Assembly: GCA_963663765.2 (NCBI GenBank) | Contig: CAXXUA010000015.1 | Location: 480,001 to 544,000 of the forward strand | Direction: 5' to 3' | Origin: Candidatus Poribacteria bacterium | GTDB taxonomy: Bacteria > Poribacteria > WGA-4E > WGA-3G | DNA: 64,000 nucleotides | Part shown: positions 5,092-40,825 of the stretch, in pieces | How positions within the stretch are numbered: the stretch's first letter is position 1 | Layout: the number at the start of each line of letters is the position of its first letter | Made by a program: the position numbers and the translations under genes | The notes under the pieces: model-generated | Database searches by the model: none | Told to the model about the DNA's origin: nothing | What the model saw: the letters and a program-made list of their open reading frames with translations, nothing else

Positions 5092-5119
5092 GACACGATT
5101 TAGAAAGGAAAAGGGTGCA
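5092..5119 (-). promoter_or_regulatory. Island motif (putative ECF promoter)
   Basis: Reverse complement TGCACCCTTTT-CCTTTCTAAA-TCGTGTCTTTAAT pointing at ORF 4719..5036. Confidence 0.65.
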
Positions 5120-5282
5120 TAACGTGGAAATTAATGGGTTGCTTACTAACGCAACAATTACCGCTCTTTTACCTGATTTACTTCGGTGTGCAAGTTATAC
5201 CGCGTATCAACCACCATTGCTCTCCGCATTCCGAGATGATTTGATACAAATCGCTACCATCACTGTTTGAAAAAGACCCTAT

Positions 5283-6371
5283 GTTCAATCCTACACAATT
5301 AAAAACGTTCCTGATATGAATACCGAATGTTCTGTGGATGAACTTGTTTGGTAGTTATCCATTGCCAATTTTGAGAAAATCCTATCTCAACTCCTTGAAA
5401 ATGTGACTCCGCGTGAACAAATGATTATTTGCGATTGCAACTCTCTAACCCTTCAATAATCTTCATGTTAGTAAATTTAGTAAATATTTTCTTATTATGC
5501 ACCCTTTTCGATCTAATACTGTGTCTTTAATTATGAAGGTATCAATAATCTTCATGTTAGTAAATTTAGTAAATATTTTCTTATTATGCACCCTTTTCGA
5601 TCTAATACTGTGTCTTTAATTATGAAGGTATCAATAATCTTCATGTTAGTAAATTTAGTAAATATTTTCTTATTATGCACCCTTTTCGATCTAATACTGT
5701 GTCTTTAATTATGAAGGTATCAAATACCTTTGTTTGGGAAAATCAAAACCAAGCATTATTGCGTAAGTCCTATCGTTTATCAATAACTTGAGAACATTGC
5801 ATCATATTTAATGTTCTTGTTATTGTTGTCCATAAAGGAAGACATGAAAAGTTTACAAAAAGGTAAATGTGAGAAGTTTCCAAGAACACCCGTGGATAGT
5901 TTCCTTGAGTCGTTGCGATTTGCGAAGGCAAAACCGCATATTCCGAAAGGTGCATGTCTTTTAGGTATCGGTACAGGAGATGGTGCTTTCTTACGACACC
6001 TCAATGGACATTTCCACATCGGCGTTGGAATTGATGCAAATCTAACCGAATCCGTTGAATTTGCGGATTATCATCTTGTGAAAGGATACTTTCCACACGA
6101 CTTTGACACAAACAAAACCTTTGATGTCATTACGATGTTGGCGACTGTTGAACATATACCGATGGGGATGCTCCCAAAAGTCGTGGATATGTGTTGGGAT
6201 TACTTCAAACCAGGTGGGCACGTTATTATTACTGTGCCTCATCCTCGTATGGATGGACTTCTGGATTTCCTGAAAAAAACCAGGATAGTCGAAGGTTTCT
6301 CTATGCATGAACATTACGGTTTTGATCCTGAATGTCTGCCAGATGTTTTAACCGTTGGCAACTTGTCCAAA
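5283..6371 (+). repeat. ~1-kb direct repeat, copy 1 (copy 2 at 11682-12673)
   Basis: Near-identical from GTTCAATCCTACAC to CAACTTGTCCAAA; contains the promoter repeats and the methyltransferase. Confidence 0.95.
5454..5722 (+). repeat. 3 x 89-bp tandem repeat, each unit holding the island motif (5498, 5587, 5676)
   Basis: Units start at 5454, 5543, 5632; only two units in the second copy (motifs at 11888, 11977). Confidence 0.95.
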
Positions 6372-6386
6372 CTATCGGAAATATAA
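5811..6386 (+). pseudogene. Class I SAM-dependent methyltransferase, damaged copy
   Basis: Near-identical to 12112..12726, but motif I reads LLGIGTG (D>G), there is a 1-nt loss near 6345 and the C-terminus is truncated at the repeat boundary. Confidence 0.75.
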
Positions 6387-6448
6387 GATGCCTTGATGCA
6401 TCTATATTCTATTCAACTTTAAGTATGAAAGAATAAAGGAGAATTATT

Positions 6449-7090
6449 ATGTTTAAAAAAGAACGTAGAATCCAACTCGCCATCGTTTTCTTAGTAGGAA
6501 TGTTCATTCTCGGTGGTACCCTGCTCAACATCGCCAACGGAGGAGAGAAGGTCCATGATATTGACATTGATGAAGATGGAAATGTTGATGTTGTGGTCAC
6601 CGTTACAACTGATATAAGTATTGAAGATGAAGACGAACATCAAAATGCAAAACCTGAAGATTTAGCTACCTTCTCCGCGCCTACACCCTACTGGTATTTA
6701 GCAGATGATTTAACAAATGGGGGAGGATCAGTTTCCGTGAGTGGAACCCGTATTGATGATGACGGAAATGAAATTGGGAAGGTTTCCGTTTATGGTGGTG
6801 TTTCTGTCTCCGTAGACTTTGACAATCTTAATGTGACATCCTATTATTGGGCTTACGCGTCCAGCAACGTCTCTGGCGACAACAATGATTGGGATGAACA
6901 TCACACTTGGGTTCAGGTTCCCGGTAAGAATAAATCCTTCCATTCGTATTCTACAATGGATACTACCACCTATGTGGAAACCATTCCAGAGTTCTTTGAT
7001 AATCTTGAAGACAAGGTTATGGGGGCATACGCTATGCTAAGTACGAAAGGTGCACGAATCGAGGTCGAATTTAAGGCTGAGGGTCAATAA
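6449..7090 (+). CDS. Secreted acidic hypothetical protein (cassette gene A)
   Basis: N-terminal signal/TM segment; RIDDDGNEIGKVSVYGG resembles RLDDDGNTLGSVAVAGG in 38835..39440; AAGGAG RBS. Confidence 0.8.
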   Translation: MFKKERRIQLAIVFLVGMFILGGTLLNIANGGEKVHDIDIDEDGNVDVVVTVTTDISIEDEDEHQNAKPEDLATFSAPTPYWYLADDLTNGGGSVSVSGTRIDDDGNEIGKVSVYGGVSVSVDFDNLNVTSYYWAYASSNVSGDNNDWDEHHTWVQVPGKNKSFHSYSTMDTTTYVETIPEFFDNLEDKVMGAYAMLSTKGARIEVEFKAEGQ

Positions 7091-7563
7091 TGGACTGTCT
7101 ACGTGTTCTCGTAACCCTTTTCATTATTACACTGAGTTTCTACCCGCAGACCGGGTGTAAACAGAAGGGGGACACTACGTCCCCCTCCACATCACAACCA
7201 AGTGAAGATAATAAAAAGAAGCTCGTGGAAATAACAGTTGGTGGCAAAGTCTGGAAAGTTGATCCAAATCTCTCCTATCAAGCGACAGGTGTGTGGACAA
7301 ACCCGAAACCAAGATTACTTAGTGATGAAGAAAGAGAACGGATCCAGGAAATACCCGCATTGATCCAAACATTGAAAATGCAGATTGATGAACTTGACAA
7401 GGAAATGAGATACCTTGAACGTATTGAAGAAACACAGATAAAAATTCGTTATAACTTCGGAAAATCACCCGATCTTTCACCTAAAGGCAATAGAGAAATA
7501 ATTGATTTAGGTGAATTCCCAATGGAAATGGAAAATCCTAAGAAAATACCCACAGAACAATAG
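7090..7563 (+). CDS. Lipoprotein, hypothetical (cassette gene B)
   Basis: Lipobox-like QTGC; GGKVWK..P.LSYQATGVWTNP and DLGEFPMEMENP shared with 38220..38735. Confidence 0.82.
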   Translation: MDCLRVLVTLFIITLSFYPQTGCKQKGDTTSPSTSQPSEDNKKKLVEITVGGKVWKVDPNLSYQATGVWTNPKPRLLSDEERERIQEIPALIQTLKMQIDELDKEMRYLERIEETQIKIRYNFGKSPDLSPKGNREIIDLGEFPMEMENPKKIPTEQ

Positions 7564-7571
7564 GAGCTATC

Positions 7572-8600
7572 ATGAAATCCTTTATTAGATTCCTCTGCTT
7601 ATGCATGCTTTTACTACTTCCATTTGCAACACATGCAAGGAACACCGCAGAGTTCGCTGGGGAAGTTATCTTTAAAAATCGAGGGAAAGAAGAACTTTAC
7701 AACGAGCTTTGGATTACCCATATTGAGGACCCAGGGAACGCACGGCTGCTTTATAAACACAATGAGGGAGAAAGGATCATTAAATATGCCATACAGAAAG
7801 ATGGTCCCAACATCGCCATTTCTGCAGGACGTATACCATATGACATTTTCCTAATTAATAGAAATCAACTGAGCAAAGGAGCACGCAACCTTACAAATAA
7901 AAGATTTAATGATATTTGGAGTGTTGACATCTCATCCAACGGAGATATTCTCTTTAGAAACTCACATCCAGTTCCCTTTCCAGAAGTGATTGTAGGGCTT
8001 TATCTCATGCCAAATGATGAAGTCAAAAAGGTAAAACCACAAGCTACACTATTAAAAGAAGGGTCAATAAACTTTGTCCGTTGGTCGCCCGATAACGAAC
8101 ATTTTATATATTTAGATCGGTTTGCCACGGGTCTTTATCTTTACAATCTCCGCACCGGAGAAGATACACTTATCACCAAAGATAATGTGCAGTCTACTCT
8201 CTTATATCCTGCTTTCTCACCGGATGGCAAAAAGCTTGCTTTTATTTATCAACCTAAGATTGAACCTGGTTTTGAACTTGACGTTATTTCACTTGAGACC
8301 CTGTATCCCCAGTTGCTCCCAAATGACCCTAATGGAGATTTGAGATTTAGTCGCATCAAATGGCCTGCGGAAAAGTATCTTGTCTATAGCAAACACGATA
8401 GTCAGAGACAGTCAACAAAAGCAACGCATTTCGTAATCCGCATTGATGGAGGGCCTCCAGAACAAATATTAGAGGGTATGGAGAAGATGTTTGAAAATGG
8501 ACTACCAGTTTTTAAGTTGGGAAACACAACGTTCGCTGTTGAACCCACAAACCGACTAACAACCGTATGGGGAAAACTCAAAACACGCAACCTAAAGTAG
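7572..8600 (+). CDS. TolB-like/PD40 beta-propeller with C-terminal VEP..RLTT.WGKLK tail
   Basis: Signal peptide; WSPD and PAFSPDGKKLAF repeats. Confidence 0.85.
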   Translation: MKSFIRFLCLCMLLLLPFATHARNTAEFAGEVIFKNRGKEELYNELWITHIEDPGNARLLYKHNEGERIIKYAIQKDGPNIAISAGRIPYDIFLINRNQLSKGARNLTNKRFNDIWSVDISSNGDILFRNSHPVPFPEVIVGLYLMPNDEVKKVKPQATLLKEGSINFVRWSPDNEHFIYLDRFATGLYLYNLRTGEDTLITKDNVQSTLLYPAFSPDGKKLAFIYQPKIEPGFELDVISLETLYPQLLPNDPNGDLRFSRIKWPAEKYLVYSKHDSQRQSTKATHFVIRIDGGPPEQILEGMEKMFENGLPVFKLGNTTFAVEPTNRLTTVWGKLKTRNLK

Positions 8601-8658
8601 ACCTAAAACAAGTCAGCAAACGTCAATCATAGGTGCTGCCCGCCCCGGGTCCTAAAAT

Positions 8659-11124
8659 ATGAATGTAAAGTCGCTAATACCACACCTTCAGAATGTTTTC
8701 ACACTTTCTCGGTGTGCAGCACTTCTGCTGTGTAGCAGCATCCTCTTTTTAGCGTTCTGGATACGTATCCAAGGTGTTGATCGAATCCCAGACAAGCAAT
8801 TTACCGATACCGACGGTTATTTCTTTTATGATCAAGCTCAACTCATCACCGAACACGGCACCCTGCCAGACCGGGATATGTCCCGTTGGGTTCCTATCGG
8901 TAAGGATTTGACACAGACACTCCCGTTCTATGGTTACGTGCTTGCATATTCCCACAAAGTGATCGCACGTTTCTTCCCAAAAGTTTCACTGTATCATGTT
9001 TGCATCTATATGCCTGTAGTCTGTTTTATCCTTGGACTCGGGGTGTTGATGTTCTTTTTTTATCATCAGTTTGGGCTACTCTTTTCGGGCATCATCGGTG
9101 TCTTATTAGCAACGCTTCCTGGGGCGATTGACCGAAGCGCAGCCGGTTTTGGTGACCGAGACAGTTGGTGCCTCTTAATTGGCATTCTTGCGATAACCAC
9201 TTATCTCCAAGCACTTCAGGTACAACATCCTCTTCACAGACTCTATTGGACACTTGCAAGTAGCTTCAGCGTCTGTATCGGAGGGTTATCTTGGGTAGGA
9301 TTTAGCATTTTCCTCGTCATTATCATGAGTGTTGAACTCTGGCGGTTTCTCACTTCTGAAAAAGAAGAAGGATTAGGATATTACGCTTTATGGACGTTAA
9401 CTTATGTTCTCCTGCTTATACTCGGTTCTCCTGTCTATCGTGGCGGAGGCGGCGGTTTTACGACACATCTTTTCACCTATGTGATAATACCGCCACTAAC
9501 ACTTTTGGCAATACGCACTTGCCGCTATCTGATACTCACAAAGTCAGCTTTTTCAAAACATCTCTTACAACATTCCCGAAACATAGCCTTCATTCTGATA
9601 ACTATTACACTTACACTTGCACTCTTTACTGTCTTGAGAAAACTTAATACATTTGACACACTACTACCTTTCAGTCAAAACAAACTCATGCAAAGTATTG
9701 GAGAATTACAAAGCCCCAATTACAAGTTTTGGTATATTAAGTTCGGCGGGGTCTTTCTGTGCGGCAGCATCGGATTTCTTCTCACAGGAATACATCCCCG
9801 AAACAGATTCGGGCACCTTCTTTTGGCTATTCCGCTCAGTCTGTTTATCCTCACAACTTTTTACCGAGAACCTGTTAATTTACTTTACATGAGGCTATTT
9901 AAAACTTCGCTTGGTAACACGCTCTTTTTTGCTGCAGTTGGTAGTGTTGGGATCGGTTTTCTGATACATGCATGGCAACGCAAAATACATCTACCAAAAG
10001 ATATTCTTTACGTTGCGTTTTGTGCATGGTTTTTTTGTTGGGTTGCACTTACACGGGACGCTAAACGGTACGACTTTTTTATTGGCGTTGCCGTCGCTTT
10101 CTTTACTGCGGTAGTTATACATGCACTCGCAAAGAGGCTCAGTGAGAAAACAATAAGTTTCCAGTTCACACCCCTATCCTTAAAATCAAATAGGGTACAA
10201 ACTGTTTTTACCACCAGCATTGCGGTTGCGGTGTTATCTTTGTTGTTATTCTGGTCCCCTGCTGGAGCACACACAAGATGGTCACGCCCCGCTGCTGTAC
10301 ACTTCCGAAATCCGCTCCCCGGAGACGGACCAATGGCAAAAACTATCAATTGGATTGCAAATACACTTGAAGAAACTGATGTTGTCGCCGCAAACTGGGA
10401 ATACGGAAATCAACTCAACGTACTCGGTGAAGTCAGAACAATTATCAGTCCCGATCACTACCTTCCTCACTGGATCCATCTCTTTTTTCGACACGTCTAT
10501 GCAGCACAATCTGAAAATGAAGCATTAGAATTTCTTTACACACACGAAGCAACACACTTAATGTTTAATCAAAGGGACGTTCTCAACACGGGCACTTTTT
10601 CAGAACTTGGGAGTGATTTACATAAAGACCGGTTTTTCATACCTCAACATCTACAGTTGTCAAATTCAGAAACTGGAAAAACAAAACATCTCATAAATAC
10701 TGATAATACACCATTTAACAAGATAGATGTGGAGCCTAAGGAATCCCCGTTAACCCTCACAGCACACACAAAAGATGGGCAAAAAGTAACACTTCCCTAT
10801 GTAGCGTTCATAGGTTATCTCAAAGAAAAAACACCGAATACCGTAGATGGTAAAAATGGCGGAGTTATCCTCTATTTAGATCCCAGACGAAATCTCCAAA
10901 AAGCATATTACCTATCTCACATCGGTTGGAATAGTCTCATTGTTAGATTATACATTCGGGGAGAACCTTCCAATGCGTTTGAGCCCATATATACCCAAAG
11001 AGAGGATATAAGAGATCAAAAAATGGTACGATTTGACTTCACCAAAATTTGGAAGATTCGGTATCCACCCAACATCAAAAAGAAACCGAAATATCTTGAA
11101 ACAGAACCGTCTGAAGGGTATTGA
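8659..11124 (+). CDS. STT3/PglB/AglB-like oligosaccharyltransferase (GT-C fold)
   Basis: Many TM helices; TDTDGY, DRSAAGFGDRD, SIGEL, DAKRY and AANWEYGNQL align in order with PglB NDGY, R..G..DxD, TIxE, R375 and WWDYG motifs. Confidence 0.8.
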   Translation: MNVKSLIPHLQNVFTLSRCAALLLCSSILFLAFWIRIQGVDRIPDKQFTDTDGYFFYDQAQLITEHGTLPDRDMSRWVPIGKDLTQTLPFYGYVLAYSHKVIARFFPKVSLYHVCIYMPVVCFILGLGVLMFFFYHQFGLLFSGIIGVLLATLPGAIDRSAAGFGDRDSWCLLIGILAITTYLQALQVQHPLHRLYWTLASSFSVCIGGLSWVGFSIFLVIIMSVELWRFLTSEKEEGLGYYALWTLTYVLLLILGSPVYRGGGGGFTTHLFTYVIIPPLTLLAIRTCRYLILTKSAFSKHLLQHSRNIAFILITITLTLALFTVLRKLNTFDTLLPFSQNKLMQSIGELQSPNYKFWYIKFGGVFLCGSIGFLLTGIHPRNRFGHLLLAIPLSLFILTTFYREPVNLLYMRLFKTSLGNTLFFAAVGSVGIGFLIHAWQRKIHLPKDILYVAFCAWFFCWVALTRDAKRYDFFIGVAVAFFTAVVIHALAKRLSEKTISFQFTPLSLKSNRVQTVFTTSIAVAVLSLLLFWSPAGAHTRWSRPAAVHFRNPLPGDGPMAKTINWIANTLEETDVVAANWEYGNQLNVLGEVRTIISPDHYLPHWIHLFFRHVYAAQSENEALEFLYTHEATHLMFNQRDVLNTGTFSELGSDLHKDRFFIPQHLQLSNSETGKTKHLINTDNTPFNKIDVEPKESPLTLTAHTKDGQKVTLPYVAFIGYLKEKTPNTVDGKNGGVILYLDPRRNLQKAYYLSHIGWNSLIVRLYIRGEPSNAFEPIYTQREDIRDQKMVRFDFTKIWKIRYPPNIKKKPKYLETEPSEGY

Positions 11125-11166
11125 TAAAATTAGTTATGGTGCTATTTGCGTTAATTGGGTTGTGAA

Positions 11167-11701
11167 CATGATGAGAAAATCTAAAATCTGGTTTGTCATA
11201 GCGACTCTTATCGTTGTTGTTATAGGTATTGTTTATGTCAGCACTCAGAGGAAACCTGAATTACGTAGTTCAAGAGGTTTTGCATGGGTTAAACATTGGG
11301 ACGAACTTGAACTTGGCACAGTCAAAAAAAATTATCAACGCTACACCGTTGACGAAATGCGGATACTGTGGGATGTAAAACTACATGATAAGTTTGGTAG
11401 TTATTCAGGCAAAGCGCATGCCGAGACTGTCTACCCATGGGATGCATATCTTGCACGCCTGCTGGAATTAGGACATCCTTTTATTGACTTATCGGACTAT
11501 GAGAGTGCTTTAGACACACGGATGAGTCTTTTAATTCGAACACGAACCTACTGGCAAACGATGAATAGAGATGAAAGAGACGCATATATTAACACACTCG
11601 GATTGTCCCCGGATGCATCATGGGAAAAGTATGAGGAGTCACTGATAAAACAGATCGTTGTTTACCGTATCAATTGGTGGCGTTCAATCCTACACAATTA
11701 A
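11167..11701 (+). CDS. Membrane-anchored hypothetical protein, truncated paralog of 15299..15934
   Basis: 11275-11686 near-identical to 15484-15895; likely start MMRKSKIW; ends where the 1-kb repeat begins. Confidence 0.7.
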
Positions 11702-12673
11702 AAACGTTCCTGATATGAATACCGCATGTTTGGTGGATGAACTCGTTTGGTAGTTATCCATTGCCAATTTTGAGAAAATCCTACCTCAATTCCTTGAAAA
11801 TGTGACTCCGCGTGAACAAATGATTATTTGCGATTGCAACTCTCTAACCCTTCAATAATCTTCATGTTAGTAAATATTTTCTTATTATGCACCCTTTTCG
11901 ATCTAATACTGTGTCTTTAATTATGAAGGTATCAATAATCTTCATGTTAGTAAATTTAGTAAATATTTTCTTATTATGCACCCTTTTCGATCTAATACTG
12001 TGTCTTTAATTATGAAGGTATCAAATACCTTTGTTTGGGAAAATCAAAACCAAGCATTATTGCGTAAGTCCTATTGTTTAACAATAACTTGAGAACATTG
12101 CATCATATTTAATGTTCTTGTTATTGTTGTCCATAAAGGAAGACATGAAAAGTTTACAAAACGGTAAATGTGAGAAGTTTCCAAGAACACCCGTGGATAG
12201 TTTCCTTGAGTCATTGCGATTTGCGAAGGCAAAACCGCATATTCCGAAAGGTGCATGTCTTTTAGATATCGGTGCTGGCGATGGCGCTTTCTTACGACAC
12301 CTCAATGGACATATCCACATCGGCGTTGGAATTGATGCAAATCTAACCCAATCCGCTGAGTTTGAGGATTATCATCTTGTGAAAGGTTACTTTCCGGACG
12401 ACTTTGACACAAACAAAACCTTTGATGTCATTACGATGTTGGCGACTGTTGAACATATACCGATGGGGATGCTCCCAAAAGTCGTGGATATGTGTTGGGA
12501 TTACCTCAAACCTAGTGGTCAGGTTGTTATCACAGTACCTCATCCTCGTATGGATGGACTTCTGGATTTCCTAAAAACTTGCAGGATAGTTGAGGGATTC
12601 TCCATGCATCAGCATTACGGATTTGACCCTGAATGTCTTCCAGATATTTTCAACCGTTGGCAACTTGTCCAAA
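11682..12673 (+). repeat. ~1-kb direct repeat, copy 2
   Basis: Matches 5283-6371; island motifs at 11888 and 11977. Confidence 0.95.
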
Positions 12674-12726
12674 GAGAACGTTGGGGATTTGGATGCAATA
12701 ACCTTTTTCTTTTTGGAAAACGTTGA
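12112..12726 (+). CDS. Class I SAM-dependent methyltransferase (Methyltransf_11/23-like)
   Basis: LLDIGAGDG motif I, GID, FDVITMLATVEH, LKPSGQVVITVP; true start possibly MKSL at 12145. Confidence 0.88.
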   Translation: MFLLLLSIKEDMKSLQNGKCEKFPRTPVDSFLESLRFAKAKPHIPKGACLLDIGAGDGAFLRHLNGHIHIGVGIDANLTQSAEFEDYHLVKGYFPDDFDTNKTFDVITMLATVEHIPMGMLPKVVDMCWDYLKPSGQVVITVPHPRMDGLLDFLKTCRIVEGFSMHQHYGFDPECLPDIFNRWQLVQRERWGFGCNNLFLFGKR

Positions 12727-12881
12727 CTGTTATCCCTGCTCTGCAGGTGAAATTTATAACTATTGCTTATTTTTTAATTCGAAAAATTCAGTGGAAAACA
12801 TAAAATTGAATACATGCAAATCACAAACGCATTGTTTTCCACGGACCGCCACAAAAACAAAGTGGCAAGGAGAATAACAAA

Positions 12882-13796
12882 ATGAAAAGAAGATTCGTTG
12901 AATGCGCTATCCTTTTAGGTATTGTGATGTCTGTCATGCTTTTTGCACAGACACAAGATGGATTAGGACATAGTGCCTGTATGCACCTCCCTGTTTTTTA
13001 TGTTGATTCAGCGGGATGCAATATTGGAGACGGGAGCGGAGATGATCCGAGAGGTTTAGATTTTCAAACTATGGGCGGTTATGAATTTCAAACTATGGGC
13101 GGTTATGAATATAGTCACAGTCACATAAGCACTGGTCATGGATGGTATTACCAAGGCGGATTGTTGAATCTTGCAGATCAGGAAGCAACGAATAATCCGA
13201 GTAGTATTAATCACCCAGGTGACACTACTAAACAAAAGATTTATAAAATGGATGTTATAACTGTATGCTTAACTAATGTCTCTACTGCTAGTGCAAGTAT
13301 AACTCCGTCTCTTAGCTATGCTGATGCCTTGCCCCAAAAGGACGATAATATCCAAGGAACAGGAACAATAGAACTTTCGTTCTCAGGTGTGTGCTATCAT
13401 GAGATCCGTTCGAATGGGAAAAATCGCCGATGGTGTGTTGAAAATACAAGAGGAAGTACCCTATGGGGACCTAAAACAGAGGTGATTTGGGTTAAGATTA
13501 GGATATTAGAACACGCCTCAAAAAGAGAAGGTTCTTTCGGTGGAGGACTTGGAGGAGCCTACGGAAGTATTTCATCTGGGTACTCTCACAGTGATCAGGT
13601 GACCGAAAAAAATATTCATGCCCGGTCCTTTGGAATAAATGCTAAGCTCCGAGGTCAGCATTTTGACAATGTTATAGAGAAACAAGACAAATTTTCTTAC
13701 GCATACGGGAGTCTTGAGTCTGCAAATTCTGGTGATGTCTGCAGCACATATCTAGGTATTGATGATCATCAATGTCCAGGCTCGGGTTCGCAATGA
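12882..13796 (+). CDS. Secreted hypothetical protein, Gly/Ser/Cys-rich
   Basis: Signal peptide; AAGGAG RBS; internal FQTMGGYE duplication; followed by hairpin. Confidence 0.78.
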   Translation: MKRRFVECAILLGIVMSVMLFAQTQDGLGHSACMHLPVFYVDSAGCNIGDGSGDDPRGLDFQTMGGYEFQTMGGYEYSHSHISTGHGWYYQGGLLNLADQEATNNPSSINHPGDTTKQKIYKMDVITVCLTNVSTASASITPSLSYADALPQKDDNIQGTGTIELSFSGVCYHEIRSNGKNRRWCVENTRGSTLWGPKTEVIWVKIRILEHASKREGSFGGGLGGAYGSISSGYSHSDQVTEKNIHARSFGINAKLRGQHFDNVIEKQDKFSYAYGSLESANSGDVCSTYLGIDDHQCPGSGSQ

Positions 13797-13834
13797 AGGT
13801 TGGAACATCTCAAATAATAAACAAAACTCTACCT

Positions 13835-13862
13835 TTGGGACGGGTACTAAATCCCGTCCCAA
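13835..13862 (+). terminator. Stem-loop after secreted-protein gene
   Basis: TTGGGACGGG-TACTAAAT-CCCGTCCCAA perfect stem, no U-tract. Confidence 0.5.
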
Positions 13863-13932
13863 CGTATCAATAGGAGCAGTGTAGGACTGACAACCTATAA
13901 GACAGGCACCTTATAATTCTGAGGAACCCAAA

Positions 13933-15312: not shown

Positions 15313-15934
15313 GGTAGTGGGTTTTGCAAGAAACACAGTGAAAACTCCAATAATAAGGTTCGTTATTGTCATCATAAGCGTTGCTACTGTGTGTTTCATC
15401 TATTTCAGGACGCAGAAGGTAGAGGCACCCTCACCAGTAAACGTTACCGAACAAGAACACAACCTAAAATTGCAAGGTGTTAAAGGTTTTGCATGGTTTA
15501 AAAATTGGGACGAACTTGACCTTGCCACAGTCAAAAAATACTATCAACGCTACACCATTGATGAAATGCGGATACTGTGGGATGTAAAACTACATGGTAA
15601 GTTTGGTAGTTATTCAGGCAAAGCGTATGCCGAGACTGTCTACCCATGGGATGCATATCTTGCACGCCTGCTGGAATTAGGACATCCTTTTATTGACTTC
15701 TCGGACTATGAGAGTGCTTTAGACACACGGATGAGTCTTTTAATTCGAACACGAACCTACTGGCAAACGATGAATAGAGATGAAAGAGACGCGTATATAA
15801 ACATACTCGGATTGTCCCCGGATGCAACATGGGAAAAGTATGAGGAGTCACTGATAAAACAGATCGTTGTTTACCGTATCAATTGGTGGCGTTCAGGTGG
15901 TATGGACCCTTTCTCAGAGTTGGAATTCCGATAG
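15299..15934 (+). CDS. Membrane-anchored hypothetical protein, same family as 13933..15312
   Basis: N-terminal TM; shared motifs; overlaps the stop of the upstream gene. Confidence 0.8.
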   Translation: MKMIKVVGFARNTVKTPIIRFVIVIISVATVCFIYFRTQKVEAPSPVNVTEQEHNLKLQGVKGFAWFKNWDELDLATVKKYYQRYTIDEMRILWDVKLHGKFGSYSGKAYAETVYPWDAYLARLLELGHPFIDFSDYESALDTRMSLLIRTRTYWQTMNRDERDAYINILGLSPDATWEKYEESLIKQIVVYRINWWRSGGMDPFSELEFR

Positions 15935-15979
15935 GTTACCTATTTATTGTTGTCGTCACGATTTCTGATTGTAATAAAA

Positions 15980-22938: not shown

Positions 22939-22945
22939 GTTCAAA

Positions 22946-27203: not shown

Positions 27204-27247
27204 ATTAAGATGTCCAATTATTTCCATATTTCACCATAATGTATATT

Positions 27248-29312: not shown

Positions 29313-29675
29313 ATGATAAAAAGACCTTTGAAAATAATACGCGCCTATCAAGGTGAATTCTTACTCACAGTCATTGTTATGGTCACAATTTTCAGCTTTA
29401 TGACGCTCTTCGGACATGGGTTATCTGATGCGACTCTTTCAAACGAAGCCCCATCTGGTCTGATACCCATAATCAAGCCTGAGTGCATAACAAGACAGGA
29501 CTGTGAAAAACCATACATTATCTGTCCAACCCCAAGAATATCGTGTCCCCAAAAGACGGAAAAAATTGGTAACCATATTATTCCTGACCGGGGGATCATC
29601 AACCCCGCATTAACCGAACCTTGCCAACAAGACACATTAAGTTCGCAAGGAGACACACAAATAAGGAGTTATTGA
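29313..29675 (+). CDS. Small exported Cys-containing protein
   Basis: AAGGAG RBS; hydrophobic N-terminus; C-x5-C-x6-C-x6-C. Confidence 0.65.
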   Translation: MIKRPLKIIRAYQGEFLLTVIVMVTIFSFMTLFGHGLSDATLSNEAPSGLIPIIKPECITRQDCEKPYIICPTPRISCPQKTEKIGNHIIPDRGIINPALTEPCQQDTLSSQGDTQIRSY

Positions 29676-29676
29676 C

Positions 29677-30417: not shown

Positions 30418-30434
30418 TACACAAAGGAGATATC

Positions 30435-32072
30435 ATGCAAAGAATATTCACAGTCCTCACACTAACTTGTTTAACACTCACGTTTTTTGTGTCGTACGCC
30501 GCATACGCTGACTTTAACGGTGATGTTGATGTCGCAGAAAAGAACATAACAACCGACAAGGATGATGCTGATACACAATATAATGTTATGCAGAATGCCA
30601 ATATCCTATATCTTCTGGCGAAATCGGAATATGAGGCAAACGAAACAAAAATTAAAAGAGGTAAGAATGTCACCGCAGTCAAATTGCTGGCTGCAACCGT
30701 GTCTGTGTATGTAAGCGGTACTCTGACTGCACCCGTAGCCGTGAGTACCCTTGTAGATATGCTGGACTTGTCAGCGTCGATAGACGATTCAACAACGCTC
30801 CTTGACGCGTATGAAACCGCGATCTCCAGAAAATACAACGAGGTAGAACAGTTTGATATTCTCTCGATTGCGTACAATATCACGTATGACATCTATATTG
30901 AGGTGCTCGCTGAACATACAGGATGGACTGAATCCTATCTCTCCACGTACATTGAAAACGAATATAATCGTAGACAGGGGATACAACATAACGGTAGTAC
31001 TACTCCCAGTGATAAGCATGGGATCGAGGGGAAAAAAGAATGGGGCGAATATGATGATACATTCCCCTCATATCCTTGTGAAGGTCCCTGTACAGTGAGT
31101 TTCATGACACCAACGAGTGAACACGTAATACAATGTGGTTCCTCCGACGATCCTGGCACTAGTAAGGTTGGAGGATGCTGGTTTCGTTACCATTCTTGCG
31201 ATATCTATGAGAAAGCAATACACACACCAGGACGATGTGAGGGAAAGCTGTGGGATGAGGCATGGACTCGGGGACCTAATGGAGAATCTGTCCCATTTTG
31301 GAGGTTAATTGACTGCGGCGAGTGGACGCGAGTGTGTTTACTCCACGTGGGCGGTCATGCCTTCCCTCTTACTCCAGGTGACAACAACTTCAATATGTTT
31401 CACTTCCTTAATATCTATAACGATGATGGCACTATACAAACCTCTACACAGGCGTACAACAACCTAATCATAGAAGAGCAGACGATCCCATCAAATTCAA
31501 ATCAACTCTGTTCAGCCTGTAATGAAACTTATACATCCAGTGAGACAAGCGAGTGCTCAACTTGTTCAAGTGATGGAGACGAGTCAGCATCTACCGATGG
31601 TTCTTCCGATTGCGCCTCATGTACGAGTACGAACGAGTGTTCTGCGTGCTATACAACTGAGACATCCACTCTTGCAAGTGAAGCCAACACGGAGACTGTG
31701 TCCACAAGTACATCAACGCCTACCGCGCCCGGTTTATATCCTGTGGGGGCATCTTTAGCGACTGTGAACGGTCAAGAGATGCCTTCATTAGCACCGGGTG
31801 ACTCACATACTGCCAAGTTGATTACGAAATCAGGTGGATATGCAATAGTGCATTGGTATTTATTGCCACCTGGGGATAGTAGAACTTACGGTGATGAGTT
31901 GTTTCCGACAACTTACGCGCAAGGTTCTACTGTTGAGACAGAGGTAACCTTTAGTTTTACGTTTCCTTCTAGTGCCGTAGGTGTGTATAAACTCACAGCA
32001 TACATTTATCCGCATTCCAGCGCATCGGATCAGACATGTTATGAGTATAGTTACCTCATTTATGTTTCCTGA
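30435..32072 (+). CDS. Secreted multi-domain Cys-rich protein with C-terminal beta-sandwich-like domain
   Basis: Signal peptide, helical N-part, His/Cys motifs, four CxxC in a Ser/Thr-rich linker. Confidence 0.82.
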   Translation: MQRIFTVLTLTCLTLTFFVSYAAYADFNGDVDVAEKNITTDKDDADTQYNVMQNANILYLLAKSEYEANETKIKRGKNVTAVKLLAATVSVYVSGTLTAPVAVSTLVDMLDLSASIDDSTTLLDAYETAISRKYNEVEQFDILSIAYNITYDIYIEVLAEHTGWTESYLSTYIENEYNRRQGIQHNGSTTPSDKHGIEGKKEWGEYDDTFPSYPCEGPCTVSFMTPTSEHVIQCGSSDDPGTSKVGGCWFRYHSCDIYEKAIHTPGRCEGKLWDEAWTRGPNGESVPFWRLIDCGEWTRVCLLHVGGHAFPLTPGDNNFNMFHFLNIYNDDGTIQTSTQAYNNLIIEEQTIPSNSNQLCSACNETYTSSETSECSTCSSDGDESASTDGSSDCASCTSTNECSACYTTETSTLASEANTETVSTSTSTPTAPGLYPVGASLATVNGQEMPSLAPGDSHTAKLITKSGGYAIVHWYLLPPGDSRTYGDELFPTTYAQGSTVETEVTFSFTFPSSAVGVYKLTAYIYPHSSASDQTCYEYSYLIYVS

Positions 32073-32389: not shown

Positions 32390-32416
32390 TGCACCCTTTC
32401 GGTCTAAAACTGTGTC
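32390..32416 (+). promoter_or_regulatory. Island motif (9-nt spacer)
   Basis: TGCACCCTTTC-GGTCTAAAA-CTGTGTC upstream of the TIR gene; lies within a copy of 29085-29213. Confidence 0.65.
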
Positions 32417-32483
32417 TTTAATATATGAAGTGTGACTCTATTTCACAAACATATATTTGAATATTCAACAAACAAAAAATCAA

Positions 32484-33029
32484 ATGAATAATCAACACAA
32501 AGTATTTATCAACTTCTGCCATACTGAAGATCGGCACTATCAGGAACGATTTGAAGAATTGTTTTTAGATGTCTACAGCATCATAGTGTCAAGGTCTATC
32601 AAAATAGGAGACTTTGATAGTACGACATTCTCAACAGAACGCATTCGTCAGCACATACGGGAAAAATATCTCCGAGATTCCACAGTGACTGTTGTGTTGA
32701 TCGGTGCTAATACATGGCATCAGAAATCTGTAGACTGGGGGATCAGCTCCAGTATACGTCAAACAGAATACAACACCCGCTCTGGACTTTTAGGGATTTT
32801 GCTACCGACATATCCAAGACCCCCCGGTAAACACTACGATCCCCGCACAATCCCGCCAAGACTATACGATAACGTCGCATGTGGATTTTCCAAAATCTAC
32901 AGTTGGAACGAGGAACCTTATACCGTCCTGTCCTGGATACATTATGCTCACATACGGAGAACAGAGATACTGCCTAACAACTCACGTGCTCCGTTAACAA
33001 ATAACTTGTCGGGCGAAAGGTGGAACTAA
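32484..33029 (+). CDS. Thoeris ThsB-like TIR domain protein (DUF1863/MTH538-like), catalytic Glu replaced by Gly
   Basis: HKVFINF, IREKYLRDSTVTVVLIG..TW..K.VDWGI..S, GLLGILLP, PPRLYDN. Confidence 0.85.
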   Translation: MNNQHKVFINFCHTEDRHYQERFEELFLDVYSIIVSRSIKIGDFDSTTFSTERIRQHIREKYLRDSTVTVVLIGANTWHQKSVDWGISSSIRQTEYNTRSGLLGILLPTYPRPPGKHYDPRTIPPRLYDNVACGFSKIYSWNEEPYTVLSWIHYAHIRRTEILPNNSRAPLTNNLSGERWN

Positions 33030-33098: not shown

Positions 33099-33126
33099 TG
33101 CACCCCTTCCGACATAACACTGTGTC
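33099..33126 (+). promoter_or_regulatory. Island motif
   Basis: TGCACCCCTTC-CGACATAACA-CTGTGTC. Confidence 0.65.
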
Positions 33127-34529: not shown

Positions 34530-34994
34530 ATGGCAATAAAGAAATCACAACTCTACCCATCATTATGGGAAAGCTGCAACAAACTCCGCGGTGGAATGGA
34601 TGCATCGCAATACAAAGACTATATTCTTACGCTCTTATTTATGAAATATGTCTCCGACAAGGTAGAGAGAAATCCTCGCGAGGTAATAATAGTAGCAGAA
34701 GGCGGTAGTTTCTCCGATATTGTGAAATTGAAAGGTGACAAGGAGATTGCTGATAAGATTAACAAAATTATTGATAAATTCGCTGAGGCAAACGAACAGA
34801 TAAGTGACTTTAATCAAGCTGATTTCAATGACGATAGTAAACTTGGTAAAGGCAAAGAGATGGTGGATCGCTATACCGGTCTCGTGGAAATCTTCAACAA
34901 TCTCGACCTCAGTGCCAATTGCGCTGCAGGAGATGACCTACTCGGTGATGCTTACGAATATCTTATGAGAGAACTCATATTGAGTAAAACATAA
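34530..34994 (+). pseudogene. hsdM: Type I restriction-modification HsdM N-terminal fragment
   Basis: MAIKKSQLY.SLWESC..LRGGMDASQYKDYIL.LLF.KYVSD...DDLLGDAYEYLMR, then abrupt end without the MTase domain. Confidence 0.88.
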
Positions 34995-36178: not shown

Positions 36179-37264
36179 TCACTGTTTCAACTTTCCCCAG
36201 AGCGTCGTCACTCGGTTCTTATGTTCAACATCAAACGGTACTTCGCTCGTTGTCCAATCAAATAATGACACGCCCCTTCCTTGCATATCCAAAATTTTTA
36301 CCTCAGGCCCACCGTCAAAAGGTATTGCGTAAGTATGATATGAAAAATTTGGCCTGAGAAACGCTCCACCGTAAGCTGTATAAACGATGTGCTCTCCATC
36401 GGGTGACCATTTTAGGTCTAAGAAGTCAAAGTGAGGTGAAAGGTTTCTTATAACCCTCAAAGGACGTATATTACTAACTGAGAAAATACTAATTTCATGT
36501 GCCGGTCCGAAAAACCTATAAGCAAAAGCAAGCTTTTTACCATCCGGTGAAAAGGCAGGCATACTCCCATCTTTGCTTACACGTATAACTTCTCCGGTTT
36601 TGGTCTTGAGAAGAAAAATGCCTTCGGCAGTATCATAAGCGATATGAGCTTTGTCTGACGACAAAACGACGCGGTGTGCCTCAACTTCTTTTATCAATGT
36701 TTCTCTTATAGGCGGCACATCGATTTGTGGTAATTGTGTTATTAATTGTTGTATTTCAGTAAAAATAGAGGTGGTTGGGTTGTCTATTTCATATTTTTGA
36801 AATAGATAGATCCCGCTCATTGGCGGAGGATTTGTGCGAAGTTTACCATCAAGGTCTCTGGCAAGCAGATAGTTTGTGAAGATGACATCTCCGTGTTGTG
36901 AGATGTCAACATCAAGAATCTCATTAAATCGCTGATGTGTTAGGAGTTGTCCTTCCTGATGGATATTATCTGTATCTATAAGATAAATATCAAATGTTAA
37001 ATCCTGCTGATCGTATTCGGTCAGAGTAGCGATATAAGGACCATTCTTTTGAACAGAGAACCCGCGAATATTGTATTCGTGTCTAAATAGCAATCGGGCG
37101 TTACTCACATCTGTCACATCGGTAATCCATAGTTCATTGAGGTTATCAGGATGTCTATAAACAACCTCACCTGTCACTTCGGCATCTATCGTTGCTGGGA
37201 GGAACACACACACACCCAGAAAAAGAATTATGGCAATATATCTCATTTTTTTAGTTTTCCCCAT
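36179..37264 (-). CDS. TolB-like beta-propeller with WGKLK tail
   Basis: PAFSPDGKKLAF, WSPDG; paralog of 7572..8600; start probably at MRYIA. Confidence 0.85.
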   Translation of the reverse strand: MGKTKKMRYIAIILFLGVCVFLPATIDAEVTGEVVYRHPDNLNELWITDVTDVSNARLLFRHEYNIRGFSVQKNGPYIATLTEYDQQDLTFDIYLIDTDNIHQEGQLLTHQRFNEILDVDISQHGDVIFTNYLLARDLDGKLRTNPPPMSGIYLFQKYEIDNPTTSIFTEIQQLITQLPQIDVPPIRETLIKEVEAHRVVLSSDKAHIAYDTAEGIFLLKTKTGEVIRVSKDGSMPAFSPDGKKLAFAYRFFGPAHEISIFSVSNIRPLRVIRNLSPHFDFLDLKWSPDGEHIVYTAYGGAFLRPNFSYHTYAIPFDGGPEVKILDMQGRGVSLFDWTTSEVPFDVEHKNRVTTLWGKLKQ

Positions 37265-38211
37265 AGTGTCGTTAGTCTATTTATAGGTTCAACAGGATAC
37301 GTAGTTGTCTTCCAATAATCAAACATTGGTACACCGTGTTCAAACATATCTAAAATTATTTCGTAGGATCCTCCATCAACAGGAATCGCTATGTTGTTAT
37401 AGGCAGTCCCTTTATTGAAGAGTTTCTTGCCGTATGTTGTATAAACGATATGTCTCCCATCGGGTGACCATTTGAGACCGAGGAATGCCGCGTGAGGCAC
37501 AAAATCTTTTGTAATCTTCAAAGAACGTAAGGTGTCAATTGAGATAATCTCAAGTTCATGTGTGATCCCTAAAAACCTGTGAATAAGTGCAAGATTTTTA
37601 CCATCCGGAGAGAACGCAGGCATACTCGCACCTTTGTTAACTCGGAAGTCCTCCCCAGTATTGATGTTAAGAAGGAAAATACCTTCTGAAGTATCATAAG
37701 ATACATAATTACCGTTTGGTGACCAGACAAGATTATTGGCGTTAACTTTTTTTAACTGTTTTATCTGCGGAATTGTCTTTTTTATTTCGCTTCTTGAAAT
37801 GAGGTAAATACCGCGCGTACGTGCATCCAGATTTTTACCAGTGAATACAATATCTCCGCGTTGCGAAATACTCACATTTAAAATATCAGAATACCTTAAT
37901 TGTGTAAGATTGTGTTCTTCTACAAGAATAGAATTTGTATCAAACAGGTATAATTCAGCTAGCCAAGGTTTGTCTTCACGTGCAGAAACAGTAGCAATAT
38001 AAGCACCGTTTTTTTGAACTGAGAGTCCATATATCGCTTGTTTCATTTCAAAAAGTAGACGCGGGTTATTTGTATCATTAAAATCAACGATCCATAATTC
38101 GTTGGTATTGTCTGGATGAACAAAAACTACCTCACCATTAACTTTCGCTTGCGTTGTAAGCGGAAAGAGAACAATCAACCAAAGATATAAAGTTGTGAGT
38201 AGACATTTCAT
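37243..38211 (-). CDS. TolB-like beta-propeller with WGKLK tail
   Basis: GEVVF....NELWI, PAFSPDGK, PVEPINRLTTLWGKLKK. Confidence 0.85.
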   Translation of the reverse strand: MKCLLTTLYLWLIVLFPLTTQAKVNGEVVFVHPDNTNELWIVDFNDTNNPRLLFEMKQAIYGLSVQKNGAYIATVSAREDKPWLAELYLFDTNSILVEEHNLTQLRYSDILNVSISQRGDIVFTGKNLDARTRGIYLISRSEIKKTIPQIKQLKKVNANNLVWSPNGNYVSYDTSEGIFLLNINTGEDFRVNKGASMPAFSPDGKNLALIHRFLGITHELEIISIDTLRSLKITKDFVPHAAFLGLKWSPDGRHIVYTTYGKKLFNKGTAYNNIAIPVDGGSYEIILDMFEHGVPMFDYWKTTTYPVEPINRLTTLWGKLKK

Positions 38212-38219
38212 GATTACAC

Positions 38220-38735
38220 CTATTTTTCTAAATGAACTTTCGTTGGGTTTTCCATTTCCATTGGGAATTCACCTAAATCAGTTATCTTGTCGGCTGAAAA
38301 ATCGGACGGTTTAGGTAACGGATAAGGTGGTTTACCAAAACTATAACGAACTTTTATTTCTGGTTGGTCAATACGTTGTAGGAAGTTTAGTTCCTTGTCA
38401 AGTTTATCAAGTTGCGTTTTCAATGTTGCAATATCATCTGTAATAACTTGTATCCGACTCTTTTCAGCATCTGTTAACGGACGCGGGTCTGGGTTGGTCC
38501 AAACACCTGTCGCTTGATAGGAAAGTTTCGGATTGATTTTCCAAACCTTTCCGCCAATTGTCACCTCTGTGGTCAACTCCTTATTTTCATCATTATGGTC
38601 TTTATTTTCTTCCTGTTGAGTTGGTGTAGATGTGGACGTAGTGTCTCTATTTTGTTCACATCCTATCTGCGATAAGATGACTATTGATAGTGTGAAAAAA
38701 CAGATGAAACGAATATTACACATAATATACCTCAT
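38220..38735 (-). CDS. Lipoprotein, paralog of 7090..7563 (cassette gene B)
   Basis: QIGC lipobox-like; shared GGKVWK and LSYQATGVWTNP blocks. Confidence 0.82.
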   Translation of the reverse strand: MRYIMCNIRFICFFTLSIVILSQIGCEQNRDTTSTSTPTQQEENKDHNDENKELTTEVTIGGKVWKINPKLSYQATGVWTNPDPRPLTDAEKSRIQVITDDIATLKTQLDKLDKELNFLQRIDQPEIKVRYSFGKPPYPLPKPSDFSADKITDLGEFPMEMENPTKVHLEK

Positions 38736-38834
38736 ATCATTTATAATTTGAACTAAAATAGTAACTTACAATCTATGAAACTATGTTGTGGATGGGACAA
38801 CATGCCCCATCCTGTTTACAGCATAACATTAGAA

Positions 38835-39416
38835 TTAAATACCTGATGCATTAATTCTGACATTCACTCGAACACCTTGAATTCCCAATGCTGCAGAAGT
38901 AGATGCAGATCCATTGCCAGCATCGTCAAAATCAATGGTATGCTGATCCCACGCCATCATCCAATCGGGATCATTTCCTCCTAATGCTGCATCACCAGGA
39001 CCACGAGCATGATTTACTTGTGGTCTACCGGGCAACCGAACCCATGCATTTCCACGACCCTGCTCAGCGTCTACGAGTGTGCTTAACGCTAAAGCCCAAT
39101 AATTAACTTCCCAATTCTCATCCGCATCTTCGGTGATATCCGCACCGCCTGCGACAGCAACGGATCCAAGTGTATTCCCATCATCATCAAGACGATCTAC
39201 TTGTAACCAAACTAATGCGTTCTTATTAATCAAATCTACATCCCAACCTTGGACGACATTTTCATAGGGACCCCCTTTTATAAATTCAAGCTCAACGCCC
39301 CCTCCCGGATTGACAATTTCTCCGATGGCATTATTGAGAATGATGTTACCGAAAACGAATGCCCCTACGAACATTAACGCTATGATTATGCTGTTTCTGA
39401 ATTTCCTATTTTGCAT
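38835..39416 (-). CDS. Secreted protein, distant paralog of 6449..7090 (cassette gene A)
   Basis: Start MQNRKF after AAGGAG; similar signal (FVGAFVFGNIILNNA), DDDGN motif, YWA.A, WV..PG. Confidence 0.8.
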   Translation of the reverse strand: MQNRKFRNSIIIALMFVGAFVFGNIILNNAIGEIVNPGGGVELEFIKGGPYENVVQGWDVDLINKNALVWLQVDRLDDDGNTLGSVAVAGGADITEDADENWEVNYWALALSTLVDAEQGRGNAWVRLPGRPQVNHARGPGDAALGGNDPDWMMAWDQHTIDFDDAGNGSASTSAALGIQGVRVNVRINASGI

Positions 39417-39642
39417 GTTAGTTCTCCTTTTGTTATCCAAGTCTCAATTTGCGAAATATAAAGCAAGCAAAGTGTTAACTTTTTATTGCTTATTTTTACA
39501 AATTGCGACTCAGGTCTACTCATATAAAACAAATATCAGCTTTAAACTATTATTTCAGAACTGAAAGTACCAACTAAAATGAACACTATAAAAACGGTAA
39601 CCTTCCAAAACAAATTGATAGTGACATAATAGCATTTTCTCT

Positions 39643-40044
39643 TTTCATAATTAAAGACACAGTTTAATCTCAAAAGGGTGCATAATACGCAAAAAGTTAA
39701 CATTACAAGACTTACGCGTTTCCCCCTTGATAAGGAGTAGAGGGTTAAAAGATATTATTTTGGTGTTTTAAACCCTTTTATCAGTGGGACTTTAAGAATA
39801 AATGCGTAAACCCCGCATCATTTATAGTAAATTATGGAATTAATTACACGCTTGCACAGGTAGGAGCGACCCGGGGAATGCCATTGGGCGAATGCGCGTA
39901 TGGCATTCCCCATGATTCATACCCTTTATTTGGAGGTCGCTCCTACCAAATAAATGAATAGGATACTGTCATGACAGCCAATTTTCACCATATTTTGCGT
40001 ATTATGCACCCTTTTGAGATTAAACTGTGTCTTTAATTATGAAA
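39643..40044. promoter_or_regulatory. Pair of back-to-back island motifs forming a ~52-bp perfect inverted repeat
   Basis: 39643-39694 is the reverse complement of 39993-40044 (TTTTGCGTATTATGCACCCTTTTGAGATTAAACTGTGTCTTTAATTATGAAA). Confidence 0.85.
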
Positions 40045-40146
40045 TGACTTTATGTCTTGTTATTTAGGAAACACATGTTAACAATCGTCACATACAGGTT
40101 GTTTTTCAATTTATATTTGGATACATTTTTACAAACAAAAAATCAA

Positions 40147-40692
40147 ATGAAGAACCAACACAAAGTATTTATCAACTTCTGCCATACTGAAGATCGGCAG
40201 TATCAGGAACGATTTGAAGAATTGTTTTTAGATGTCTACGGCATCATAGTGTCAAGGTCTATCAAAATAGGAGACTTTGATAGTACGACATTCTCAACAG
40301 AACGCATTCGTCAGCACATACGGGATAAATATCTCCGAGATTCCACAGTGACAGTCGTGTTGATCGGTGCTAATACATGGCATCAGAAATCTGTAGACTG
40401 GGGGATCAGCTCCAGTATACGTCAAACAGAATACAACACCCGCTCTGGACTTTTAGGGATTTTGTTACCAACATATCCAAGACCCCCCGGTAAACACTAC
40501 GATCCCCGCACAATCTCGCCAAGACTATACGATAACGTCGCATGTGGATTTTCCAAAATCTACAGTTGGAACGAGGAACCTTATACCGTCCTGTCCTGGA
40601 TACATTATGCTCACATACGGAGAACAGAAATACTGCCTAACAACTCACGTGCTCCGTTAACAAATAACTTGTCGGGCGAAAGGTGGAACTAA
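40147..40692 (+). CDS. ThsB-like TIR protein, second copy (also E>G)
   Basis: Near-identical to 32484..33029. Confidence 0.85.
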   Translation: MKNQHKVFINFCHTEDRQYQERFEELFLDVYGIIVSRSIKIGDFDSTTFSTERIRQHIRDKYLRDSTVTVVLIGANTWHQKSVDWGISSSIRQTEYNTRSGLLGILLPTYPRPPGKHYDPRTISPRLYDNVACGFSKIYSWNEEPYTVLSWIHYAHIRRTEILPNNSRAPLTNNLSGERWN

Positions 40693-40797
40693 ATTGAATG
40701 TGCGATACGCGCACGTGTGTCATCGCAGCACATGTGCGCGTATCACACATGTGAACAACTATAGTTTTTTGACACATTTCCAATTGTTTTCACATCA

Positions 40798-40825
40798 TAC
40801 ACCCTTTCCGACATAATACTGTGTC
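40798..40825 (+). promoter_or_regulatory. Island motif variant
   Basis: TACACCCTTTC-CGACATAATA-CTGTGTC. Confidence 0.55.

Follow-up and report, generated by a model that had tools for sequence, protein, structure and literature searches.

A Probable Mobile, Modular ECF Sigma Factor Regulon with a Recurrent Predicted Promoter in Candidatus Poribacteria

We describe here a 36-kb island (positions 5092–40825) within a 64,000-nucleotide window of DNA from a Candidatus Poribacteria bacterium (assembly GCA_963663765.2, contig CAXXUA010000015.1, positions 480,001–544,000 of the forward strand), in which copies of one bipartite motif stand in front of genes, and which an earlier note had read as the putative regulon of a resident transmembrane extracytoplasmic function (ECF) sigma factor. 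All 14 copies of the motif listed in that note are present in the window, with position and strand as given (three are on the minus strand), and a pattern that covers all 14 found no match when the window was simulated 150 times under an order-3 Markov model. The core of the site is TGCACCC-N15/16-GTGTC, followed by an AT-rich stretch. The fuller consensus first put forward fits eight of the 14 copies, with those at 5092, 22557, 23848, 32390, 33099 and 40798 deviating from it; and, while the spacing is indeed fixed at 15 or 16 nucleotides, the claim that the spacer sequence varies is true only in part, as five copies have an identical spacer. The sites are intergenic and face genes, as had been noted: none lies in a called gene, and all 14 are aimed at an open reading frame (ORF) on the same strand.

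The resident sigma factor (19422–22328, minus strand) is a protein of 968 amino acids with sigma2 (residues 23–89) and sigma4 (residues 128–179) domains, one hydrophobic segment that begins at about residue 220 by hydropathy, and a C-terminal part that matches BNR/Vps10/YCF48 propellers and is placed outside the cell; folded without an alignment, it gave an unusable model with a predicted local distance difference test score (pLDDT) of 34. As stated earlier, one copy of the motif precedes this gene: its putative autoregulatory site (22557–22584, minus strand) lies 228 nt upstream, and a palindromic repeat (22353–22512) sits between the two. The site at 23848–23875 (plus strand), with a predicted +1 near 23885, faces a peptide operon. 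This begins with an 82-amino acid precursor-like peptide (24005–24253, plus strand), which combines a conserved leader (FxxxEEG, ending in AKA) with a variable Cys-rich core, as do 70 homologous peptides, and a terminator-like hairpin follows the peptide gene (24276–24304). The rest of the operon (24693–29107, plus strand) encodes a TolB-like propeller, an A24 prepilin-peptidase-like protein and an UshA-like/cytochrome c554/DsbA fusion, and these genes are 70–80% identical in relatives, with their order kept. We take the FxxxEEG leader to be like a prepilin cleavage site, followed by a signal-like stretch ending in AKA. In operons of this kind, which resemble those for ribosomally synthesized and post-translationally modified peptides (RiPPs), the peptides adjoin the A24 peptidase (24005–29107 here; L038:12074–19074 and L039:608–14857 elsewhere), and in one relative (G008), GT4 glycosyltransferases with a weak PqqD/ScfB-like N-terminus flank the peptide copies. 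We found no paper on prepilin peptidase, RiPP and glycosyltransferase together. The four loci found through the A24 peptidase all belong to Ca. Poribacteria, and near-identical RNA-library runs, which contain 5–6% of the sequence words, are sponge metagenomes (a small share).

In relatives, the peptide operon and the sigma gene stand back to back, each behind a site, and this core continues with a further site, a gene for a winged-helix protein, a gene for a small ECF sigma factor, and a GspC-like gene. Compared with this order, the window has 14 kb of cargo between the sigma and winged-helix genes, lacks the small ECF gene, and has its GspC-like gene in another place. The winged-helix-like protein itself (105 amino acids; 4719–5036, minus strand; weak GMT-wHTH match, E=0.003) is faced by the site at 5092–5119 (minus strand), for which there is a positional ortholog in relatives; the protein has orthologs of 77–84% identity in four relatives, where its gene comes after the sigma gene and before the small ECF gene. 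The neighbors of the core differ between genomes. The contig G002:C18 carries the core module together with ParA, a type I restriction system and an Xer-like recombinase; on two other genomes its ends map within 4 nt of each other, and it is therefore apparently a circle of 58.9 kb. The sigma/peptide core is a mobile module, which the first reading of the island had missed. In another relative (G055:C7, L255:9620–17751), a CRISPR-Cas-like block lies beside the module, with an Xer-like gene and ParA (identified by eye).

The remaining sites stand before cargo. Three tandem 89-bp units (5459–5722, plus strand), with one site each (5498–5525, 5587–5614 and 5676–5703), precede cargo block 1 (5811–11701, plus strand), which encodes a methyltransferase, a secreted 213-amino acid protein, a 157-amino acid lipoprotein-like protein, a beta-propeller with a WGxLK end, an STT3-like protein of 821 amino acids, and a truncated copy of the gene at 15299. 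Two further tandem units of the 89-bp type (11860–12024, plus strand; sites 11888–11915 and 11977–12004), part of a duplicate of 5283–6371, precede block 2 (12112–19274, plus strand), with a methyltransferase, three secreted or anchored proteins, a GspC-like protein and an STT3-like protein of 854 amino acids. The site at 29180–29207 (plus strand), whose upstream and downstream flanks we call 'e' and 'X', precedes a recurrent cassette (29313–32072, plus strand) for a 120-amino acid Cys-rich secreted protein, a 246-amino acid membrane-anchored protein with the sequence HGDHWH, and a variable secreted protein of 545 amino acids. The site at 32390–32416 (plus strand) has the same upstream flank 'e' and another downstream flank, 'Y', and faces a ThsB-like TIR gene (32457–33029, plus strand). 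Next, the site at 33099–33126 (plus strand) faces a copy, with ATT as its first codon, of the 112-amino acid gene found at 40942, then a 205-amino acid gene and an HsdM fragment (34530–34994), a gene order matched in G002:C18. The site at 39656–39682 (minus strand) faces the 38835–39440 block, and the minus-strand cargo as a whole (36179–39440), which is paralogous to block 1, encodes a secreted 201-amino acid protein, a lipoprotein-like protein and two WGxLK propellers. Finally, the site at 40005–40031 (plus strand) faces a second ThsB-like TIR gene (40057–40692), and a TACACCC variant at 40798–40825 (plus strand) faces the 112-amino acid GIY-YIG-like gene (40942–41280).

Many of the proteins encoded behind sites have an N-terminal hydrophobic segment. 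The two STT3-like proteins (8659–11124 and 16710–19274) match NCBIfam models with E-values of 2e-11 and 8e-14, below the cut-off, and an alignment of the 821-amino acid protein matches yeast STT3 (E=1e-4); as a single sequence, the same protein had no sequence match in the PDB. These proteins have NWEYG and NWGYG where yeast STT3 has WWDYG, which may indicate a different acceptor, and their genes usually come last in a cargo block. The anchored 246-amino acid protein (29677–30417) belongs to a lineage-specific family of 86 homologs, and in relatives no other gene is found behind the motif as often; its HGDHWH motif resembles a histidine triad. Its model is confident, with a pLDDT of 86, and a fold search with it gave no match (the best Z of 5.1 covered the N-terminal helix only); a protein atlas likewise held no usable match for either this or the 545-amino acid protein. 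The WGxLK-type C-terminal motif, possibly a sorting signal, is found on 119 of 4683 called genes, including those at 7572–8600 and 36179–38211 in the window. In relatives, the cargo comprises GT2, PMT-type and STT3-like glycosyltransferases and a fucose pyrophosphorylase (G012), fusions of PqqD-like domains with GT4 and sugar-supply genes around peptide copies (G008), or tandem blocks of anchored and variable secreted proteins (G051, G003 and G006). At one such locus (L044, G051:C3:1748001–1768000), tandem motif-headed blocks encode secreted proteins that differ N-terminally and have a common C-terminal tail, an array that resembles a polymorphic system and has an STT3-like gene at its end.

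The 14 copies cannot be counted as 14 independent sites. Those at 5498, 5587 and 5676 and at 11888 and 11977 form two tandem arrays of one identical 89-bp unit within a segmental duplication; 39656 and 40005 have in common a 55-nt inverted repeat (98%); 33099 and 40798 lie in a common duplication of 1.2 kb; and 29180 and 32390 have about 95 nt of upstream sequence in common. Taking these duplicated flanks and tandem units into account, 11 promoter regions remain, of about seven lineages. Nor is the motif confined to the 36 kb of the island, as had been supposed. A scan of the whole genome with a matrix built from nine of the window sites gave 20 sites at a score of at least 33, of which 14 are those of the window and six are intact sites on the contigs C3, C5 and C6, such that the statement that no copy lies beyond 41 kb is true of the window and not of the genome. 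The next score below these 20 is 20.7, and a reversed-genome control peaks at 21. Counted over the whole genome, TGCACCC-Nx-GTGTC has six occurrences with a spacing of 15 and 13 with a spacing of 16, and no more than one with any other spacing between 10 and 23. On C7, an insertion sequence with the ends CAGGACTTACGCA interrupts a 21st site (C7:108480–109600), and an insertion sequence of the same kind lies between the site and the sigma gene in G012 (L049).

Within the genus, 35 of 39 genomes contain the strict motif, as do 49 of 54 in a second genus, and controls with the reversed pattern gave 0–2 matches per genome; four identical, atypical matches in G013 were kept in these counts. The five genomes with a full-length ortholog of the sigma factor (at least 67% identity) have 10–19 sites each, compared to 0–10 (median 3) in the other 35, and G009 has neither the sigma family nor any site. 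Among 50 sites examined at fetched loci, nearly all from relatives, none lies within an ORF of 150 codons or more, and the gene behind the site is a sigma gene in 10 cases and encodes a protein with a hydrophobic N-terminus in 20. The site is also kept before all 10 close orthologs of the peptide gene, and is absent from two distant copies.

The genome encodes 21 paralogs of this sigma type, of which 20 were analyzed (the 21st is frameshifted), and the family numbers 21–43 matches in each genome examined. A strong related site (score of at least 15) lies upstream of 12 of the 20, and four more have weaker variants at 34–37 nt; these sites mostly combine TGCAACC or TGCACCC with either GCGTC or ACGTC and usually lie 25–50 nt before the start, and the resident sigma's own site also precedes the genes of its five closest relatives. 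Together with the covariation of the variable bases with specificity residues discussed below, the 10 of 10 peptide orthologs with a site, and the absence of sites from long ORFs, this related pair upstream of most paralogs bears out the promoter reading of the earlier note, and judging from these sequence patterns, the motif is very probably the −35/−10 promoter of membrane-tethered ECF sigma factors that form a family in Poribacteria. A pyrimidine–purine step is found at +9/+10 in 58% of 91 sites, a weak indicator of the start, and sigma-70-type sites are not clearly enriched in the divergent region (12 vs 6.6 ± 2.5). One RNA-library contig ends at 23887, only 2 nt away from where the peptide gene's transcript is predicted to start, but this was not counted, as contigs cannot show starts. 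A second family of fused ECF sigma factors in this genome (C11:45900–79481, C6:276016, C13:379590 and C5:603526) has an upstream motif of its own, TTTTTTAAACC-N-TCTCT.

To assign the motif to a particular sigma factor, we compared 113 sigma domains of the family (20 from this genome and 93 from relatives) with the DNA upstream of their genes. The 80 members with a strong site were analyzed and the 33 scoring under 15 dropped; the scoring matrix was seeded from 77 of the same 113 upstream regions, which biases the presence of a site but allows both alternative bases at the variable positions. Out of 190 columns, residue 172 has the highest mutual information with the variable base of the −35 element: Arg occurs with C in 50 of 50 cases, and other residues occur with A in 23 of 30. 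For the variable base of the −10 element the top column is residue 83, with Asn accompanied by T (20/20) and Asp by C (33/35). We take residues 172 and 83 to correspond, in the RpoE register, to the pairs Phe175/−32 and Asn84/−13. Both are named as specificity pairs by Todor et al. 2020 (PMC7776599), the second by mutagenesis. A second set of sigma factors, from seven genomes (80 new rows, 70 usable), gave Arg with C in 16 of 19 and others with A in 42 of 51, and Asn with T in 3 of 3 and others with C in 60 of 67. The predicted specificity residues of the resident sigma factor are Asn83 (codon 22080–22082) and Arg172 (codon 21813–21815), and it is the only one of the 20 analyzed paralogs with both (the frameshifted 21st has neither). 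Across the family, 13 of 15 sigma factors with both residues have TGCACCC and GTGTC upstream; conversely, in a search that started from the motif, all seven readable family sigmas behind it have both residues, two of them being new. The earlier attribution to "this sigma or its paralog family" can hence be narrowed, with the residue code pointing to the resident sigma in this genome, and we consider it reasonably likely that the TGCACCC/GTGTC variant is read mainly by this protein (19422–22328).

Several observations weigh against this assignment, or against the regulon model more broadly. In tree-corrected tests, which used a quick tree and a relaxed set with 17 of the 113 rows dropped, the Arg/−32C association gave three pairs the same way, none opposite and four unchanged (p 0.25), and Asn/−13T two to three the same way and none opposite, which is not significant; these counts are weak because kin share both traits. 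The base that accompanies Arg at the Phe175 position is −32C in our data and −32T in PMC7776599. Three sigma factors without Arg keep a full site (L008, L040 and L076), and about ten of the more distant sigmas of the island clade have lost theirs. G003, a single contig that is 93% complete, has 10 sites and no sigma with both residues among 26 family members, and G051 has three strict sites and Asn in none of the 25 sigmas examined (of 26). The strict motif is, in addition, far commoner across genomes than the peptide module (10 of 39), and release of the sigma domain by proteolysis, which would probably occur as in other sigma/anti-sigma fusions, is argued by analogy only. The orphan sites in G003 and G051, together with the lost and mismatched ones, mean that other paralogs may read the motif, or that sites outlive their sigma factor.

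The first of these options would make the motif a promoter shared with other paralogs (for example, those of the near-universal Arg/Asp clade or of the GTATC-preferring Lys/Arg84 clade), so that the island plugs into a family-wide response and has no private regulon. Sites that persist in two genomes without a predicted cognate among the sigmas examined are what such sharing would produce, as is a motif that is much commoner than the module, and the promoters of the family are only one or two bases apart. However, all 20 sites of this genome are of one variant while the other strong paralog sites are mostly CGTC, base and residue covary at the contact positions, and the orphan sites may have arrived recently or be in decay (two of those in G051 are TGCACAC). 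On balance, we regard a shared promoter as unlikely.

The flanks of the sites point to a further role. Six of the 20 sites in the genome have one upstream flank, 'e' (at least 94 nt), and three different downstream flanks; C3:134513 joins the upstream flank of the 89-bp units to the downstream flank of 29180; and the similarity between unlike pairs of sites ends 5–9 nt past GTGTC. The order and orientation of the cargo also vary between relatives. As these flank mosaics break at the promoter, it also marks points at which genes are swapped; the first reading had overlooked this shuffling of cargo at the motif as well. This would equally be expected if the motif were mainly the recombination site of a cassette system with a dedicated Xer-like recombinase, its resemblance to a promoter being secondary, and G002, G008 and G055 do have Xer-like genes close to the module. 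Yet a related motif occurs singly, 25–50 nt before most sigma genes of the family, with no shuffling there, and the motif tracks the DNA-reading residues of the sigmas; no tyrosine or serine recombinase was found among the 53 window ORFs scanned, and the homologs in this genome are on other contigs. Crossovers anywhere in the common repeat of 35–40 bp give the same picture and explain the mosaics without a dedicated enzyme, and we therefore read the motif as a promoter first and a joint second, with a dedicated recombination site being very unlikely. One flank looks by eye like a dif site, but this idea was dropped since the other flanks lack the resemblance. The weakest alternative, that the motif is the site of the 105-amino acid winged-helix protein or of the small 209-amino acid ECF factor encoded next to it in relatives, draws on the presence of both genes behind a site in several relatives, but is scarcely credible given that the small ECF gene is not in the window (its best homolog, at 47%, is on C5) and that of G008 has Asp or an Asp-like context at the Asn84 equivalent, that winged-helix orthologs (at least 61%) occur in 12 of 39 relatives vs sites in 35, and that the motif is no palindrome and tracks the residues of the large sigma.

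As for the surroundings of the island, there is no tRNA in the window. Transposase genes (DDE_3, IS605/TnpB and DDE_Tnp_1) lie at the right edge of the island (42902–47220) and a broken transposase-like remnant at its left edge (3049–3865). Short repeats, both palindromic and tandem, are densely packed at 22330–23800, 41300–42700, 50800–52700 and 55100–56800, and these patches are very abundant in DNA runs. Outside the island, a GrdB-like gene in two ORFs (800–1543) adjoins an oxidoreductase, a split that is possibly due to selenocysteine read-through.

Returning to the ECF promoter reading, we regard the island as a real, mobile and modular ECF regulon, for which we propose the following mechanism. 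A signal at the outside propeller would free the cytoplasmic sigma2–sigma4 part, probably by proteolysis, and the freed sigma would start transcription about 10 nt past GTGTC at its own gene, giving positive feedback, and would also switch on the peptide operon and each cargo block. The output would be mostly at the cell surface, with secreted and anchored proteins, propellers, STT3-like and other glycosyltransferases and a few defense-type genes, and this gene content points to a glycosylated cell surface being built or remodeled. Crossovers within the common promoter of 35–40 bp would in turn duplicate or swap cargo blocks, most simply by ordinary recombination, such that each incoming block would arrive already wired to the sigma factor. 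Taken one step further, the island may represent a "promoter-jointed" cassette system, that is, a mobile element with a one-protein surface sensor whose cognate promoter is the preferred recombination joint; this is a tentative idea that we put forward as possible rather than likely. If true, variable secreted proteins and their own STT3-like glycosyltransferases would be continually gained, duplicated and swapped under one switch, allowing sponge symbionts to vary their glycosylated surface, while an undescribed peptide with a prepilin leader would be the constant product of the core and possibly also the signal.

We found no paper linking Poribacteria with ECF terms, in a search outside which most subscription papers fall. 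The redundancy or specialization of many ECF paralogs of the same group in one genome is left open by Casas-Pastor et al. 2021 (PMC7826278). A family with many paralogs, whose promoters change with two contact residues, offers a direct test of paralog specialization and a set of possibly orthogonal sigma–promoter pairs, and for an abundant, uncultured sponge symbiont the island provides a regulon and a promoter code that can be tested. If the promoter is the swap point, such a regulon would be built by recombination and not by evolving each site anew.

Integrons, too, are arrays in which gene blocks can be swapped and every boundary has a repeat. Unlike in an integron, each block of the island is headed at its 5′ end by the repeat, which is a promoter, the blocks are of mixed orientation and not promoterless, and there is no integrase among the window ORFs scanned; by the two features tested (an integrase and promoterless one-way cassettes), the island is not an integron. 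Closer likenesses are found among ECF sigma factors. As with the autoregulatory ECF promoters of PMC7776599, a bipartite −35/−10 element precedes the sigma factor's own gene, there is covariation at the Asn84/−13 and Phe175/−32 pairs, and the local regulon travels with the sigma factor by horizontal transfer; the local regulon here comprises 11 promoter regions vs three or fewer in that work, and a 968-amino acid membrane-fusion sigma, 20–40 paralogs per genome and a promoter at swap points are particular to the present case. The Planctomycetes ECF57 group (PMC7826278, PMC8999054) likewise has a membrane-spanning C-terminal extension, often a beta-propeller, has expanded within one phylum, and is proposed to be released from the membrane. 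However, ECF57 is found in Planctomycetes only and the resident sigma family comes from Ca. Poribacteria, with one predicted membrane segment as opposed to about two, without the cysteine pair of sigma2 and sigma4 (Cys81 is present in 111 of 113 family sigmas; at the sigma4 position 39 of 113 have Cys, and the resident sigma has Ala). The extension of this member matches propellers of the BNR/Vps10 type, and some ECF57 members have a WD40-like one. ECF57 promoters are reported as not conserved, whereas those of Poribacteria are well conserved and paralog-specific. By description, the resident sigma can also be likened to IutY (ECF243) and SCO4117 (ECF52), sigma/anti-sigma fusions that are activated by proteolysis (PMC8999054), provide the model for the proposed activation step and, like it, signal across the membrane in one protein, although in the resident sigma Pfam reports no zinc-finger anti-sigma domain, and the sensor domain and targets differ. 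Set against these systems, the regulon would work like a standard autoregulated ECF regulon.

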